This document shows, one piece after another, positions 2,469-24,030 of a stretch of 64,000 nt of DNA. Source of the DNA: Ostreococcus lucimarinus (lineage: Eukaryota). The notes below the pieces were generated by a model that searched no databases, was not told the origin of the DNA, and worked only from the letters and a program-made list of their open reading frames with translations. The stretch lies in NCBI GenBank assembly GCA_000092065.1, contig CP000583.1. One strand, given 5' to 3'. Each line of letters opens with the position of its first letter. The first letter of the stretch is position 1. The position numbers and the translations under genes are program-made.

Positions 2469-3755
2469 TTACTTTGACGAGGAGAATAGGCGTCGGCGCT
2501 TCTTAGCGCCGGTGTACGCACCGTGCTTGGCGATGGCGGTGTCGTCTTTGCTAGCGATGACGATCGTGGCGTTGGCGCCATCGTCGGTGGCGTTGACGGC
2601 GGCGACGACGAAGACGCCGTCGGGCGACGCGACGACGCGGTCGACGCCGGCGAGGGCGGAGGATCGAGCCTTTTCCAACACGACTGGTACGTTCGGGTCG
2701 GTGATGTCGACGACGACGATGGCACCGATACTTTTGGCGGCGACGTACGCGGTGGTGCCGTGGACGCTAACGTCGCGCGCGCCCGATAAATCTCGGTTCG
2801 CCGCCGGCGCTAACTCAAAGCCATCCGACGGTTCGTTCGGCGCGAGTCGCCCCGCGTGCACCCCGTTCAAATACTCGGGCGCGCCGTACGTCGAGCTGTT
2901 AAATATCGAAAACGTCCCCCCATTCAACGTCGGCGTCACCACGTACGTGTACGCGCGTTCGCCGCCCCCCACCCCCACGCACGCGCCGCTCGCGCTCTCC
3001 AACCGACTATCCTTGACGCTCCCGACGAGTTGCATCGTCCCCGCCGAGGTGTACTTTAACGTCGTCACTCTCCGCGTCATCCCGCTCATCGTCCGCAGCG
3101 TTTGCCTATCATACGGTCCTAACTGTATTTTATCGATTCCCGAGAGCTGATACGTCGATCCCGTGATCGTCGGCGCGTCGTTTTCGTTCGGATCCAACTT
3201 CACGAAGACCACCCGCGCGTGCGCTCGGCTCGCCACGAACGCCAGCGTCCCGTTCACCACCACCACATCCGTCGGCTCCGCGATTCTCGTCGCGTTCTTC
3301 ACCGCGTGTATCTGTCTCGCTTTCGTCGCTCGCGTTCCATCGCCATCGACGCCGTATATCAACAACGAATTCGTTCCCGCGCACGTCACCGCCAGGCGCG
3401 CTCGATTTCCCGCCGCGACGCCGTCCCGCGCGCTCTCGTACGCGAACAGCCCTTCGCACGGCGTCGCGTCCTCGTCGAGCGTCGCGATCGTCGTCAGCGT
3501 CACCGGCGACGTCGTGAGCGTCAGCGCGCTGATCGTTCGCGCGCCGAGGACGTACGCGATCGTCGACAGCGCCGACGGCGCGGACGACGCGTGCGCCGCG
3601 GGGGTGATGAATTCGACGGTTCGCGCGTCGACGTCGGCGAACGGAGACGCGATCTGCGTCAAATTCGCCGCGCGCGCGACGGCGCAGAGCGATGCGATGA
3701 CGACGCCGCGCGCGACGCGGGCGAGGCGCGGACGCGCCGACGCGCGAGGCGCCAT
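2469..3755 (-). CDS. secreted beta-propeller protein with LVIVD-type repeats (hypothetical)
   Basis: ORF 2469..3908; the likely start is MAPRASARPRLARVARGVVIASLCAVARA (a signal-peptide-like N-terminus) with the M near 3755. Repeated hydrophobic-strand motifs (VVVVDITDPNVPVVL, VFVVAAVNATDDG, TAYVAAKSIGAIVVVD) resemble LVIVD repeats. Confidence 0.4.
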   Translation of the reverse strand: MAPRASARPRLARVARGVVIASLCAVARAANLTQIASPFADVDARTVEFITPAAHASSAPSALSTIAYVLGARTISALTLTTSPVTLTTIATLDEDATPCEGLFAYESARDGVAAGNRARLAVTCAGTNSLLIYGVDGDGTRATKARQIHAVKNATRIAEPTDVVVVNGTLAFVASRAHARVVFVKLDPNENDAPTITGSTYQLSGIDKIQLGPYDRQTLRTMSGMTRRVTTLKYTSAGTMQLVGSVKDSRLESASGACVGVGGGERAYTYVVTPTLNGGTFSIFNSSTYGAPEYLNGVHAGRLAPNEPSDGFELAPAANRDLSGARDVSVHGTTAYVAAKSIGAIVVVDITDPNVPVVLEKARSSALAGVDRVVASPDGVFVVAAVNATDDGANATIVIASKDDTAIAKHGAYTGAKKRRRLFSSSK

Positions 3756-3904: not shown

Positions 3905-4816
3905 TCACGGTCGACGCATCTTGCGAACGAGGTCGGGCTCGAGGTAGTCGACGCGCGGAATCGAACGCGCGACGCGCCGGCGAATCGGCGAAGACGGCGG
4001 TTCGATTCTGGGGACGTCGGCGATGACGTCGAGCGGAGATCTCGCGGGTGGACTGGCGTGCGTTTTGATGGTGGACGCTGGCGCCGGTGATGCGTCGCGA
4101 GGCGGTGGGGGAGAATTTTCCGGCGACGGCGGCGGCGCGAGCGGGCGCGGCGGCGAAAGCGCGAGCGGGCCGACGACTTTGCGTTCTTCGATCTCGTCGA
4201 ACCCGCTCGGACGTCGAAGCTTCGTCTTCAAGCTCGGCTCGGCGTAATTCAATACTTTCATGGCGTGTCTCGCGCGCAGGGCGCGTCGAGCCGTCTCTCC
4301 CACGGGTGTCGTCTGCTTGGGCTCTTTCGTTTTCGCCGTGGACTTGCCGATCGGTTTCTTCGCCTTGGCGCGCTTCTTCGGCGTCTGCTTCTTTATGACT
4401 CTACGCTCGATCGCCGCATCGCAGAGCGCGAGAGACAACTCACGCAACGTTTCCGCCGCTTCCGTCAACGACAAGCTTTCACTCTCACCACGCGCGTCGG
4501 AATCGGACGACGATGCGTCTTCGTCGCTCTCTTCGTCCGCGTAAACGTCGATCGATTTAGAAGCCTCGCGCCTCCCTCCACTCATTTTCGCCTTCTCCTT
4601 CGCGTGCGCGAGCTCGATTCTCAACCGACACACATCATCCCGCGCCGCGCGAAGCTCTTCGATCCACCGTCGCTTCTCCTCTTCCACAGTCGTTCGGACC
4701 ATTCGCAACGCAGTCGTCAACGTACGCTGGCTCGCCTCGGACGCTTCGGCGCGTTCCCGCGCCTCCGTCGTCTGCGCTCTCAGCTGCGCGAAACCGACCC
4801 GAACGCTTCCCGTCAA
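3905..4816 (-). CDS. SGO: shugoshin-like protein (N-terminal coiled coil plus two C-terminal SGO basic motifs)
   Basis: 303 aa with an N-terminal coiled coil (QRTLTTALRMVRTTVEEEKRRWIEELRAARDDVCRLRIELAHAKEK) and an acidic Ser-rich middle. It carries two copies of the shugoshin C-terminal motif: KVLNYAEPSLKTKLRRP and RVDYLEPDLVRKMRRP (compare the fungal and animal VNYKEPSLRTKLRR motif). Confidence 0.6.
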   Translation of the reverse strand: MTGSVRVGFAQLRAQTTEARERAEASEASQRTLTTALRMVRTTVEEEKRRWIEELRAARDDVCRLRIELAHAKEKAKMSGGRREASKSIDVYADEESDEDASSSDSDARGESESLSLTEAAETLRELSLALCDAAIERRVIKKQTPKKRAKAKKPIGKSTAKTKEPKQTTPVGETARRALRARHAMKVLNYAEPSLKTKLRRPSGFDEIEERKVVGPLALSPPRPLAPPPSPENSPPPPRDASPAPASTIKTHASPPARSPLDVIADVPRIEPPSSPIRRRVARSIPRVDYLEPDLVRKMRRP

Positions 4817-5284
4817 TCACGAGCACGCACGTCTATCCCTGCATTCCGTTTTCTTCCCCCCTTTCGCCGTCTCGAGCGCGAGAGCCCTCTCGCGTCGCGC
4901 GCGCCGATTCCAAAAATGATTCCAAAAATCCAGGCACTCTCGGGCTGTCTCGGACGCACCTTGGCGTTCGCGCGCGCGAGCTCGCCGTTCGCGCGCGCGA
5001 ACTTGGCGCACAGCGACGACGCGCTGCGAGGATTTCCCGCGTCCCGTCCCATCGTTTCGGCGTTCGATCGAGGCGCGCGGCGCGATCAACGCGAATCATT
5101 CATCGTCGTTCGCGCGCGCGCGAGTGACGAACGCGACGCCCGCATTCGCGATCTCGCGATCGATCGCGACACACCGCGGCGTCGGTGACGCGAGCGACGC
5201 GCGCGAACGCGAACGAATCGCGCGCGATCGATTCGGCTCGCGCGCGACGCGCGCGGCGGTCGACGACGGCGAGGCCGCGACGCG

Positions 5285-5847: not shown

Positions 5848-6403
5848 CGCGTCGCGTCTGCCGTCCTGGACGCGCGTCGACGCCGCGTCCCGCGCTCGCG
5901 CGCGTAGACGTTGTCATCGCAGCGCGCCCATCGCTCGCCGCGTCCTCGTCCGCGCCCTCGCGCCGTCGTCGCGTCTCGCGCGCGCGCCTCGCGCGCGCGT
6001 GAGATTTTTCTTCGCATACTTAACTTCAAAAACGCCCATCAATGGTGATCACCACCGGACCCATCGCGCCGTCCGCGTCAGCATCTTCGCGCGCGCGCGT
6101 CGGTTGCTCCGTCCCCCGCCGCAATCTTCCCCGCACACGCCGACGTCCGCGACGCGCGCGCGCCGATCGCGCGACGAACCGCTCGCGCTCGCGTTCGTTC
6201 ACGCGCCCGAATCTCGCGCGCGCGCAAAACCGCGCGCGCGCGGACGCGAGACGCGGAAATCTCGACGATTGCGCGCGCCGACCCTCGCGCGCTTTTGAGT
6301 GTTCGCGCGACGTCGACGGGACGCCGCGACGCGCGCGCGCGATCGATCGCGAAGGAAACGCGAGGGAAGAAGAACGCGAGCGCGTGAACGCGCGGTGCGC
6401 GGC

Positions 6404-7441
6404 ATGGGGGCGTACACGTACGATAGCGCCACGCACGGGCCGCCGATCGGGGTCCCGAGGACGATTGGCAAGGCGCGGACGACGGCGCGCGGGGACGACG
6501 CGGAGGGCGATTCCGGTTCCGGACGCTCGAGCGATGCCCCGCTGTCGGTGAATGTTTTTGGAGGTGGGACACAGTTCGCGAGGTCGAGTCCGAGCGAGTC
6601 CGAGGTCGGCACGCCGGGTCGAGGGATGGAAGCTCCTCGAAACGGGACGGCGACGGCGAGGCCGCGCGGGCGCGCGTCGTCGGGTTCAAAGTCGCCGACG
6701 GATCTCAGCGAGACTGATTCAGAGCAAAGTAACACGGGGAAGGGTGATGGTGCGAACAAATTGGTGCATAAAGATTTGGTGACAAACTTGAAGGCGCAAG
6801 CGCGCAGACACGATTCGAGAACGTCGCTCTACAGAGGGGTTTCTCTGTTGCGGCAAACCGGCAAGTACCACGCGCAAATCAACGTGCAGCGGAAACAGTT
6901 GCATCTTGGTTTCTTTTTCAGCGAAGAAGAGGCCGCGCGGGCGTACGATCGGGCGGCAATATTCAAGGCTTCGGTAGAAGGCGGCACCATCTGTACAAAT
7001 ATGGACATCAACGATTACAAGGATGAAATTCCCACCTTGCAGGCGATGACGCAGCCCGAACTGTTACAAATGTTGCACGAGATGAAGCTGAAGAGTAACG
7101 AGAGTTCGGCGCCAAATTCGCCGCGAAAAGGAATTAAACCGCGCACAAGCACCAATTCCAAGCAAATGGCTCGCGAAAATCGATTGGATCGTAGTAACAG
7201 CGGCAGCATTGAGCACGTGATCATCAAGGCGAACTCGCAAGAGCCGCCGACGAGTCCGCGTTTTGACGCGTTAAACAGCGCCGTAGGTGTCGTCGAACGG
7301 GAACAGCAAGGCACTTTGAGTGTTGTCAATGTGGCTGCTTCAGTCACCGTGCAGCACACGTGTCCGGGTGTGATTGATTTACACATCAGCAAGCGTCGAA
7401 GGACGCGAATACAACCCAGACAAGCGCCCGCGGCAGCGTAA
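6404..7441 (+). CDS. AP2/ERF-domain transcription factor
   Basis: The ORF contains a canonical AP2 domain: YRGVSLLRQTGKYHAQINVQRKQLHLGFFFSEEEAARAYDRAAI (YRGV....W.A.I......LG.F...EEAARAYD.AA). The start is taken at MGAYTYD (6404); the upstream part of the ORF is GC-rich low complexity. Confidence 0.7.
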   Translation: MGAYTYDSATHGPPIGVPRTIGKARTTARGDDAEGDSGSGRSSDAPLSVNVFGGGTQFARSSPSESEVGTPGRGMEAPRNGTATARPRGRASSGSKSPTDLSETDSEQSNTGKGDGANKLVHKDLVTNLKAQARRHDSRTSLYRGVSLLRQTGKYHAQINVQRKQLHLGFFFSEEEAARAYDRAAIFKASVEGGTICTNMDINDYKDEIPTLQAMTQPELLQMLHEMKLKSNESSAPNSPRKGIKPRTSTNSKQMARENRLDRSNSGSIEHVIIKANSQEPPTSPRFDALNSAVGVVEREQQGTLSVVNVAASVTVQHTCPGVIDLHISKRRRTRIQPRQAPAAA

Positions 7442-21966: not shown

Positions 21967-24030
21967 TTAAAGCTCGGTGCCGATGGACGCTTCAGCGTTC
22001 GCAATCGACACCTCCTTAACACTCGAAGCCCTTGCTAAAGTTTCCTTAATGGTTGCATCGCGCACCGCGTCGACTGCATCTTGCTGAGAAGCCGCGTTCG
22101 AGGCTTCTTTTTCAGCCTTCTTCTCGGCAATGGAGACTTGTTGCTCGAGCGCCTTTGCCGCCTTCGCGACTTCTTTCTCTGCCTTGGCTTCCTTTTCGGC
22201 TTGAATCTTCGCGGCTTCCTCGGCCTTGGCTTCAGCTTCTTGCTTCGCCTTGGCTTCTTCGGCAGCTTTTTTGGCTTCTTCGGCAGCCTTGCGAAGTAGT
22301 ACCTCTTGTTTTGCTTCATTTTCCTCTCGAATCGCGACTTGTCGAGCCTTCTCCGCCGCCTCGGCGGCTTCCTTTGCCTTGACTTCGGCTTCTTCCGCTT
22401 CCTTCATTTTCGCTTCAGCTTCAGCCTTGGAGACTTCGGCTTCTTTCTGGCTCGCATCTGCTTGGGAGAAATCGACCTCAGGAACCTCGATCACCTCTTC
22501 TGCTTCGGGCTCTTCAGCTGCGTCGCGGATTTGACGCGCCTTCACCGCTTTGATTGTCTTGTGCGCTTCGGTGACGATCGCACAGGCATTTTCAATCGCC
22601 ACAATGATAAATGAGTGGAAAGTGGAATCTTTCTTGATAAACAAATTATCAAAGCTCTCCTTGTGCGCGTTCAAATCTGCCACTGAGCGTTCTTTAGCGA
22701 TCGTGACGGCGTCTTGTGCGTCCTTGAGCGCGCCATTCCACGCCGCCTTATCATCGTTAAACTTGGCAAGTTTGTCGCCGATGGGCGGCATGACGAAGTT
22801 TGGCGCTTTACTTTTGTAAACGTTTTCTGCTCTTTCAAGAGCTCGTTCAGCTTTGACGATGTCAGACAACGACTTGACGTATGCAGTGGAATGAGAGGAG
22901 ACCGTGTTGCACTCCGTGTGAACGACTTGCTCGAACTCTTCGACCATGCGCTTGAATTCCTCGACGTCGATCTCACTCGTCAGAGCTTGAATCTTATCGT
23001 GAATCTCGGCCGCCGCTTTTTTCAGAGACTTGAAACCGTCGATCTTTTTGCATAATTCATCAGCGAAAATATTCATGCGATCCGGCCCGAAGATGAGTTT
23101 AATATACGGCACAAAATCTTGGAAGATGAGCGCCAAAGCCATGCCGTGACGCTTCATTTCGTCCAGTTTTGCGTTAATTTCGTTCAACTGCTCCGGAAGA
23201 CCGTTATCAACGATGGCATTTTTGGCGGCAGTGATGGCATCTGCAGCCGTGTAAGTGCGCTTCTTCAGCTTGGCATACGCAACAGAGTTGGCGCGCTCGA
23301 ACTTGGCCGCGGTGGCGATGGCCTCCTCACCCGTTCGCTCCCGCTTTTGCATGCACTTTTTCGCGAAATTTTCGAGCTCGGTAATCGTGCGCTTGAACAA
23401 CGGAACGAGAATCGATTCAACCTTGCCAGCGCACTCATTGATAGCCTTCTTCGCTTCTTGTAGCTTGATTTCCATCTCACCCTTCTTGATAGCGTTCTTT
23501 TCCTCATCCTTCGATGTCTTCAAAGCAAACCTGTAATCGTATTCGGACTTTTCGTACAGCTCGTACACGTTCCAAGCTTCTTCGATGACATCGATCGTCT
23601 CATCAATGCCTTCGATGAACGTCTCAGTCATGAAATTGACGTATTCGGCGTGCGCGGCGGAGGCGTTTTGCACTTGAAGCGCCACGTTTCGCAGTCGCTT
23701 CGAGCATTCCTCATTCGCATGGCAGTATTTACTCCAATGCATGAGCACGCTGTAATCCAACGGCAACGTCCCCGCCGACCACGCTTTCCAAAGCGCGATC
23801 TGTTCAAAAAGCATCTCTCGAATCACGCTCAGCCGCTTCGCCTTCGCCGCCGTCTCGGCGTCGAATTCGCACTTCACCAGCGCGTACTTGGTCAACTTCG
23901 CCTTCCGAGCCGCTTTCGCCGCCGCCGCGGACGACGCGCCGAGTCCATTCGACCATTGCGTTCCCGCGGCCGTCGCCAGCGTCCGCGCCTTATCCGCCGC
24001 CGCGTCCGGCAGCGAGTAACAGATTCCCAT
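21967..24030 (-). CDS. hypothetical long coiled-coil protein with N-terminal MGxxxS/C acylation motif and a Glu/Lys/Ala-rich C-terminal region
   Basis: 687 aa. The N-terminus MGICYSLP has G2, C4 and S6, a myristoylation/palmitoylation-type context. Most of the protein is predicted coiled coil, and the last ~170 aa are KAKEAAEAAEKARQ...-type low complexity. Its GC is lower than the flanks, and I recognise no conserved enzymatic domain. Confidence 0.55.
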   Translation of the reverse strand: MGICYSLPDAAADKARTLATAAGTQWSNGLGASSAAAAKAARKAKLTKYALVKCEFDAETAAKAKRLSVIREMLFEQIALWKAWSAGTLPLDYSVLMHWSKYCHANEECSKRLRNVALQVQNASAAHAEYVNFMTETFIEGIDETIDVIEEAWNVYELYEKSEYDYRFALKTSKDEEKNAIKKGEMEIKLQEAKKAINECAGKVESILVPLFKRTITELENFAKKCMQKRERTGEEAIATAAKFERANSVAYAKLKKRTYTAADAITAAKNAIVDNGLPEQLNEINAKLDEMKRHGMALALIFQDFVPYIKLIFGPDRMNIFADELCKKIDGFKSLKKAAAEIHDKIQALTSEIDVEEFKRMVEEFEQVVHTECNTVSSHSTAYVKSLSDIVKAERALERAENVYKSKAPNFVMPPIGDKLAKFNDDKAAWNGALKDAQDAVTIAKERSVADLNAHKESFDNLFIKKDSTFHSFIIVAIENACAIVTEAHKTIKAVKARQIRDAAEEPEAEEVIEVPEVDFSQADASQKEAEVSKAEAEAKMKEAEEAEVKAKEAAEAAEKARQVAIREENEAKQEVLLRKAAEEAKKAAEEAKAKQEAEAKAEEAAKIQAEKEAKAEKEVAKAAKALEQQVSIAEKKAEKEASNAASQQDAVDAVRDATIKETLARASSVKEVSIANAEASIGTEL

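Follow-up and report, generated by a model that had tools for sequence, protein, structure and literature searches.

We analysed a 64,000-nucleotide stretch of contig CP000583.1 from Ostreococcus lucimarinus (assembly GCA_000092065.1; hereafter, the window) and found that the gene at 3905..5052 on its minus strand is the shugoshin of this species, a member of a known family encoded with a single intron. In a review, the shugoshin family is characterised by an N-terminal coiled coil and a single basic SGO motif (PMC4301718). The original prediction, made from the sequence alone, had proposed a shugoshin homolog with a duplicated SGO motif in an open reading frame (ORF) of 303 codons at 3905..4816 (minus strand). 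This ORF starts with a TTG directly after a stop codon and therefore cannot be the whole gene. Enumeration of GT..AG splice pairs gave one outstanding model: a gene of two exons, of which the ORF covers only the second, with a product of 323 amino acids (aa). Exon 1 (M1-K31; 4960..5052, minus strand), found by splice enumeration and in transcripts and orthologs, starts with an ATG at 5052..5050, encodes SLCAKFARANGELARANAK and, read from 5052 to 4960, translates as MGRDAGNPRSASSLCAKFARANGELARANAK. It is followed by a phase-0 intron of 176 nt (4784..4959, minus strand; AAG-GTGCGT ... TTTCGCGCAG-CTG) and by exon 2 (L32-P323 and the stop codon; 3905..4783, minus strand, with the stop at 3905..3907). 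The first 11 codons of the 3905..4816 ORF are read-through of the intron, and the remainder is exon 2.

Three transcript contigs from three sequencing runs (L007, L008 and L009) match the window at 100% until position 4960 and resume at 4783 to 4785, so that the intron is missing and the exon junction joins AACGCCAAG to CTGAGAGCG. These contigs are spliced transcripts, and the shugoshin gene is thus both expressed and spliced. A protein record, P0301, matches the 323-aa product exactly and comes from the same three short contigs, each of which carries both SGO motifs in one 323-aa ORF. The orthologs in O. tauri (L002) and on contigs L003 and L006 are likewise preceded by exon 1 (‘NLCARFA.VNAELARAN..’), followed in each case by a GT donor at the codon where the O. 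lucimarinus intron begins, and exon 1 and the intron position are kept in four species. The intron at this codon measures 191 nt in L003 and 84 nt in L006, restoring the frame in both; the O. tauri donor is AAG-GTGCGT, as in O. lucimarinus, and its acceptor was not located on L002. Within the proposed intron, the contig of a sister strain has indels of 8 nt and 1 nt relative to the window. Because the intron lies upstream of both SGO motifs, it removes neither of them. The objection that the ORF might consist of two genes or conceal an intron was therefore correct in that an unrecognised intron exists, but this intron leaves the duplication intact, and the spliced transcripts keep both motifs. 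Overlapping ORFs on the plus strand (e.g., 4265..5188) were rejected as artefacts to be expected in GC-rich DNA (about 60-66% GC in the window, and 66% in the gene region), given that conservation and transcript evidence are all on the minus strand.

The reference annotation of strain CCE9901 (XP_001416998.1 / A4RUQ0), a ‘predicted protein’ of 265 aa, starts only at an internal methionine, Met58, so that residues 1-57 are missing, which correspond to exon 1 and the 26 codons at the beginning of exon 2 (window 4703..5052). The annotated O. tauri model (252 aa, starting with MRTALG) is likewise truncated at the N-terminus. UniRef labels A4RUQ0 as a ‘PH domain-containing protein’, yet no PH family appeared in our Pfam scans.

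The assignment of the gene to the shugoshin family, as originally predicted, holds. Among the two Pfam families used (Shugoshin_C, PF07557, and Shugoshin_N, PF07558), Shugoshin_C matches the first SGO motif with 29.2 bits in the ORF, 27.7 bits in the spliced protein and 31.1 bits in the segment alone, all above the gathering cutoff of 23.3 bits. The nearest named homolog is the O. tauri protein ‘Shugoshin, C-terminal’ (P0018; E = 9e-31, 42% identity over 84% of the query), and the two loci are syntenic, with the same LVIVD-repeat gene downstream in both species. A long predicted N-terminal helix followed by disorder is in line with the same assignment.

Both SGO motif peptides proposed by the original prediction are present in the protein. 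Motif 1 is YAEPSLKTKLRR, with its core, KVLNYAEPSLKTKLRRP, at 4208..4258 (minus strand), and motif 2 is YLEPDLVRKMRR, which ends one residue before the stop. The second copy is indeed at the extreme C-terminus, as its peptide RVDYLEPDLVRKMRRP occupies 3908..3955 (minus strand) and is followed by the stop codon, whereas the spacing of about 60 residues that had been given for the two copies is incorrect, the distance from Tyr to Tyr being 100 residues. The pattern [YF].[ED]P.[LIVM]..K[LMIV]R[RK] occurs twice in the six frames of the 64-kb window, both times in the shugoshin gene. Its expectation is about 4e-6 per protein of the same composition, and only 1 among 200,000 shuffles contained the pattern at all; the repetition is therefore not due to chance. 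Against an independent hidden Markov model (HMM) built only from instances outside Mamiellales, motif 1 scored 30.4 bits. The score of 43.9 bits that motif 2 reached against a family HMM carries no weight, as this HMM was trained on the same family and the test is circular. Residues Y311, E313, P314, L316, K319, M320, R321 and R322 of motif 2 are invariant in the orthologs. Judged by the orthologs, copy 2 is a diverged but homologous SGO motif, which is the most diverged of its family and nevertheless keeps every invariant residue.

To follow the two motifs through related algae, we used an alignment of 13 Mamiellales sequences with 36-92% overall identity. Both motifs are present in all full-length relatives, in at least seven lineages of 36-52% identity that we take to be Mamiellales. 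The Y, E, P, L, K, R and R of the core are invariant in both copies across all 13 sequences, whereas the linker between the motifs is barely alignable. Motif 2 of O. lucimarinus aligns column for column with the second motif of all other full-length Mamiellales orthologs (9/9), which all carry both motifs, so that the duplication extends to related algae. Pfam reports two Shugoshin_C stretches in each of the five orthologs tested (P0018, P0015, P0016, P0010 and P0021), whose second motifs alone score 30.1, 27.9, 23.4, 29.4 and 19.3 bits, respectively, four of the five exceeding the cutoff. Motif 1 lies in a block of 31 residues that is nearly invariant across Mamiellales. According to this alignment, both SGO motifs are kept throughout the group. 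At position 312, O. lucimarinus has Leu, where other Mamiellales clades have Ala, Thr or Val.

The cluster representative P0001 has Ser in place of Pro314 in motif 2 (YLESDL), and the environmental homologs P0005, P0006, P0008 and P0009 carry frameshifts, at different sites between the motifs, by which motif 2 is lost. On contig L001, the frameshift is a single change from C5 to C4 at about 4111 (minus strand). These linker frameshifts are probably assembly errors in a GC-rich homopolymer stretch, and they may alternatively be real truncating alleles. In strains P0002 and P0003, copy 2 and the 14 residues preceding it are identical to the window, with 8-11% divergence elsewhere, and the intact sequence is found on more than 100 contigs (P0300, P0299) and on all three transcript contigs.

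We then examined the remainder of the protein, for which an AlphaFold2 (AF2) model was built on the 13-sequence ortholog alignment (all coordinates on the minus strand). Residues 8-98 (4583..5031, including the intron) form a long N-terminal helix, a predicted coiled coil, with a predicted local distance difference test (pLDDT) score of 86-97 in this block. The helix is unbroken across the exon junction, and V60, R61, E67, K68, W71, L85, E88, L89 and A90 are its invariant residues in the orthologs. The N-terminal coiled coil of the original prediction thus stands as a predicted helix, but its most shugoshin-like part is outside the coordinates of the 3905..4816 ORF: the coiled coil begins in exon 1 (4960..5052), which also encodes the segment with the greatest similarity to the Shugoshin_N core (N-x-E-L-A-x-x-N). 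Comparison of ‘KFARANGELARANAK’ in exon 1 to the fungal Sgo1 core ‘RRFIRQNRELAKNNS’ gave a weak score of 6.3 bits against a home-made HMM of fungal N-termini, and N22 and N28 are candidate PP2A-binding Asn residues. When the spliced protein was scanned for Pfam Shugoshin_N, which had no match, only generic coiled-coil families appeared, below their cutoffs (Rootletin, 20.3 bits vs. 36). The modelled helix would be in line with a coiled coil of the Shugoshin_N type, for which the sequence match to the fungal core is suggestive but no proof.

The predicted acidic middle is also present, as an acidic and Ser-rich patch (DVYADEESDEDASSSDSDARGESES / DVYADEESDEDASSSDSD; residues 110-134, 4475..4549) that is disordered in the AF2 model. 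A second helix (LTEAAETLRELSLALCDAAIERRVIKK; residues 137-163, 4388..4468) was recognised in the ortholog alignment and corresponds to a modelled helix at residues 129-164 with a block pLDDT of 70-89; its AAE-x-L-x-x-L is invariant in orthologs. Motif 1 with its helical extension (GETARRALRARHAMK-VLNYAEPSLKTKLRRP; residues 193-223, 4208..4300) combines the Shugoshin_C match with a modelled helix at residues 192-212. The Pro/Ser-rich linker between the SGO motifs (4073..4171) is predicted to be disordered, poorly conserved and variable in length, and contains the C5 run at about 4111. Closer to the C-terminus, the ortholog alignment reveals a conserved linker element, SPLDVIADVP (residues 280-289, 4010..4039), with a short AF2 helix at 281-286; the form SP-x-[DE]-I-[IVF]-x-x-[VIL]-P is found between the motifs in all Mamiellales orthologs, with S280, P281 and P289 invariant. 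This element may be a cyclin-dependent kinase (CDK) phospho-site (S-P) or a docking motif, and in its position it may be comparable to the cohesin-binding site of human SGO1, which depends on CDK. The protein ends with motif 2 and the basic stretch that precedes it (IRRRVARSIP-RVDYLEPDLVRKMRRP; residues 298-323, 3908..3985). Outside the predicted helices 8-98, 129-164 and 192-212, the modelled chain is disordered save for the short 281-286 helix. The modelled layout of a long N-terminal helix and an otherwise mostly disordered chain is the usual one for shugoshins (as in PMC4301718).

The next gene downstream, at 2469..3755 (minus strand), encodes a protein of the LVIVD-repeat type (by a Pfam match on the O. 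tauri ortholog) and likely starts with an ATG at about 3755, only about 150 nt from the shugoshin stop. Transcript contig L007 extends to window position 3394, well inside this gene, and therefore indicates transcript overlap or read-through between the two genes. In the upstream neighbour, an ORF at 6299..7441 (plus strand), a DNA-binding segment of the AP2/ERF type (YRGVS...GKYHAQI...LGFF..EEEAARAYD) was identified by eye, which is consistent with a green-lineage genome. Elsewhere in the window, the ORF at 21967..24030 is identical to XP_001417005.1 of O. lucimarinus strain CCE9901.

To survey the two-motif layout in other lineages, we compared a motif-only profile to 1.84 billion representative proteins and obtained 176 matches at E ≤ 0.001, in which motifs were counted by regular expression and HMM. 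Because the profile is biased toward ‘NYAEPSL’, shugoshins of plants, animals and yeasts are under-sampled, and the survey shows the existence of two-motif proteins rather than their frequency. About 110 of the matches are Sgo1 proteins of filamentous fungi, with one motif in the middle of the protein and a different conserved tail (RRRSMML). Beyond Mamiellales, two-motif proteins were found in Ceratopteris richardii, Phytophthora fragariae, P. rubi and Peronospora destructor, and as P0027, P0033 and P0042/P0120; a homolog search from P0120 returned no match but P0120 itself. Pfam reports two Shugoshin_C stretches in three fern and two oomycete proteins and in three from further lineages, as opposed to one in two angiosperm proteins. 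A follow-up search recovered the two-motif layout in most ferns sampled, the internal copy being degenerate in Adiantum. All two-motif proteins have an internal and a terminal copy, the latter ending 1-8 residues before the C-terminus, with a spacing of 66-340 residues between the copies. Thus, the two-motif layout is not special to O. lucimarinus. None of the papers found in our full-text literature searches mentions a shugoshin with two SGO motifs, and a bioinformatic shugoshin survey (PMC5134366) makes no mention of repeats or two copies. The original statement that described shugoshins have a single such basic region agrees with these searches and with the review cited above, and the two-motif architecture appears to be a recurrent variant that is undescribed in the literature searched, though visible in database domain matches.

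Comparison of the copies within and between lineages bears on their origin. In Mamiellales, the two copies have stable and distinct signatures (EPSLK.K for motif 1 vs. EP[DN]L[VI][HR]K for motif 2), from which it follows that the duplication is older than the Mamiellales radiation. Between Mamiellales and ferns, internal copies agree with each other at 3.3, terminal copies at 2.3, and internal with terminal copies at 1.4 of 8 variable positions, which gives a weak hint of an old green-lineage duplication, eight positions being too few to rely on. The oomycete copies, in contrast, agree with each other at 6.3 of the 8 variable positions, so that they may have arisen by a separate, more recent duplication or have evolved in concert. 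Residues common to both copies differ by lineage (Y-[AT]-EP in Mamiellales, YKEP in ferns, and EPKLNTKLR in oomycetes), a pattern that would fit recognition of one and the same lineage-specific ligand by both copies. The recurrence of the same internal and terminal arrangement in several lineages argues for a selective advantage of two copies.

Shugoshins protect cohesin at centromeres; their function is known only from studies in yeast, animals and plants, and the functions of the SGO motif and of the coiled coil have been reviewed (PMC4301718); in Schizosaccharomyces pombe, localisation mutants (K298I/L299) and a PP2A mutant (N29I) have been described (10.1101/2025.09.22.677724). By analogy to shugoshins elsewhere, the N-terminal coiled coil of the O. 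lucimarinus protein would dimerise and dock PP2A-B56 and/or the chromosomal passenger complex (CPC), and each SGO motif would, as in the rest of the family, bind nucleosomes with a Bub1-phosphorylated H2A C-terminal tail. Two motifs per chain, and four per dimer, on a flexible linker of 66-340 residues could then read the H2A mark in a multivalent manner and with higher avidity, the targets being either both H2A tails of one nucleosome or the tails of neighbouring nucleosomes. Such an arrangement would suit a very short shugoshin (250-350 aa). We found no other recognisable chromatin-targeting module in the protein, HP1-, Mad2- and cohesin-binding motifs not having been searched for. We favour this bivalent or multivalent reading of Bub1-phosphorylated H2A by the two SGO motifs and put its chances at about even. 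An extended form of the proposal, in which two-motif shugoshins are old and widespread outside opisthokonts, occur in green algae, ferns, oomycetes and other protists, act as bivalent H2A readers targeted by avidity, and gave rise to the single-motif yeast, animal and angiosperm forms by simplification, seems to us rather unlikely.

Several results weigh against multivalent reading. Motif 2 of O. lucimarinus has no Pfam Shugoshin_C match, whether in the protein, alone (E ≤ 10) or padded at the tail, and scores 9.1 bits against the independent non-Mamiellales HMM, compared to 21.9-31.2 bits for the second motifs of orthologs. Shugoshin_N gave no match on the spliced protein at E ≤ 10, and we found no experimental structure of an SGO motif with a nucleosome in the literature covered. 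Motif 1 bears a conserved helical extension of 14 residues that motif 2 lacks, which makes different partners conceivable, and the shared lineage-specific residues could equally stem from recent duplications that occurred independently, clearly a possibility in oomycetes. The low scores of motif 2 also speak for decay, i.e., that copy 2 is a relic inherited from a two-motif ancestor that has lost its function in O. lucimarinus. No other second copy of the family scores lower, Leu stands where Ala, Thr or Val is found in other clades, and the stretch upstream is non-canonical; to this can be added the Pro to Ser change in P0001 and the loss of copy 2 in the four frameshifted environmental variants. 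Against decay, the family-invariant residues are all intact in the window, P0002 and P0003, with copy 2 identical despite the divergence elsewhere; the frameshifts are at differing sites in a GC-rich homopolymer stretch, and the one that was checked (C5 to C4) is of a kind typical of assembly error; the intact form is on more than 100 contigs and the three transcripts. We judge decay to be very unlikely. Formally, an HMM search that assigns only one segment of the O. lucimarinus protein to Shugoshin_C, as ours did, counted against the duplication in the terms of the original prediction; since the second motifs of orthologs are Pfam-positive, this objection does not hold for the family. The silence of Pfam on motif 2 of O. 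lucimarinus can be attributed to two lineage-specific changes: replacing Leu312 by Ala (L312A) restores 19.4 bits, and 23.5 bits, over the cutoff, are reached when motif 2 is preceded by the basic stretch of an ortholog.

A different division of labour is conceivable, in which only the C-terminal copy reads phospho-H2A and the internal copy, together with GETARRALRARHAMK, has another partner (cohesin, the CPC, importin via a nuclear localisation signal, or DNA). This sub-functionalisation would account for the location of motif 1 in the nearly invariant 31-residue block that, unlike motif 2, is predicted to be helical (192-212), and for the copy-specific signatures that are consistent throughout the clade. 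Pfam aligns motif 1 from model position 4, and motif 2 of orthologs from position 1 or 2; the C-terminal copy has the canonical location, and its ortholog counterparts match the Pfam model over its full length, with the upstream R-P-x-R-R included. The greater similarity of like than of unlike copies between Mamiellales and ferns is also in its favour, except that this statistic is based on 8 variable positions. On the other hand, both copies keep the seven core residues, including the counterparts of the K and L needed for centromere localisation in S. pombe, and the almost identical oomycete copies show no sign of different partners. We consider sub-functionalisation possible but doubtful. 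Lastly, the duplication might be an artefact, if the match were due to chance or low complexity, if the ORF call had joined two adjacent genes, or if one copy were spliced out with an intron. The GC-rich region (66%) has many overlapping spurious ORFs, the ORF start is not an ATG, and an intron does exist. However, the pattern is confined to its two occurrences in the window and nearly absent from shuffles, both copies are conserved in orthologs, the intron is upstream of both, and three spliced transcripts encode both motifs in one ORF. The shuffles and spliced transcripts refute an artefact of this kind, to which we assign a practically negligible probability.

For the structural recognition of phospho-H2A nucleosomes by the SGO motif, PMC12624148 shows only a low-confidence AlphaFold3 (AF3) model. 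A conserved natural two-motif form in proteins of 250-350 aa offers a compact system for valency in centromere targeting, and it indicates that domain diagrams derived from yeast and animals do not cover the diversity of the family. If the second motif were dispensable, the O. lucimarinus protein would be an ordinary ortholog with a redundant linear motif. The truncated O. lucimarinus (265 aa) and O. tauri (252 aa) annotations lack the exon for the best-conserved segment of the coiled coil and would therefore mislead searches for PP2A-binding residues.

Comparison to the known members of the shugoshin/MEI-S332 family (S. pombe Sgo1 and Sgo2, Saccharomyces cerevisiae Sgo1, human SGO1 and SGO2, and Drosophila MEI-S332) shows that the O. 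lucimarinus protein, with its predicted coiled-coil helix at the N-terminus, resembles them in a long disordered remainder and the motif Y-x-E-P-x-L-x-x-K-[LM]-R-R. The O. lucimarinus protein differs from them in that it has two SGO motifs where a single one is described, is much shorter (323 aa), and has no detected Pfam Shugoshin_N. O. tauri P0018 and the other Mamiellales orthologs (42-52% identity) are syntenic and have both motifs, the EAAE-x-LR-x-L helix and the SP-x-[DE]-I element in common with the O. lucimarinus protein, in which copy 2 is more diverged (VDYLEP). Sgo1 of Pezizomycotina (about 110 representatives) has a nearly identical core, NYAEP[SN]L..KMRR; unlike the O. lucimarinus protein, it has a single SGO motif in the middle of the protein, a clear Shugoshin_N-type N-terminus (RQNRELAK) and the C-terminal tail RRRSMM[LV]. 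In these fungal proteins (P0029-P0166), the strongly conserved extreme C-terminus reads R-x-x-R-x-(A/S)-x-RR(R/K)SMM(L/V), some 150-320 residues past the SGO motif, and is a second conserved basic element of a kind different from the SGO motif.

The oomycete proteins (Phytophthora fragariae, P. rubi and Peronospora destructor) share with the O. lucimarinus protein an N-terminal coiled coil and two Shugoshin_C stretches, which are about 70 residues apart, with the second near the C-terminus; they differ in that their copies are nearly identical (SYAEPKLNTKLR[RQ]GD) and that a tail of 8 residues follows copy 2. One of them, P. destructor P0079 (CAI5743227.1), combines a two-motif shugoshin-like N-terminal half with a complete Ser/Thr kinase domain (Pfam Pkinase, 272.6 bits), and represents either two neighbouring genes joined in the gene model or a true fusion of shugoshin and kinase. 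In angiosperms, Ricinus SHUGOSHIN 1 and the Musa shugoshin-1-like protein have the C-terminal copy only. At about the position of the fern internal motif, Ricinus P0206 (residues ~200-225) and Musa P0205 contain ‘RR.S.R(F/L)KS.E.EP(S/T)EN’, which is triplicated in Musa; by visual inspection, the RR.S.R(F/L)KS segments may be degenerate remnants of an internal SGO copy. The fern shugoshins (Ceratopteris richardii KAH7427946 and Adiantum spp.), in which Pfam finds two stretches, combine a plant-type KKLSDITN box at the N-terminus with an internal SYKEPSLK.K[LM]R[QR], usually ending in RQ, and a C-terminal SYKEP[SP]L.TKMRR.

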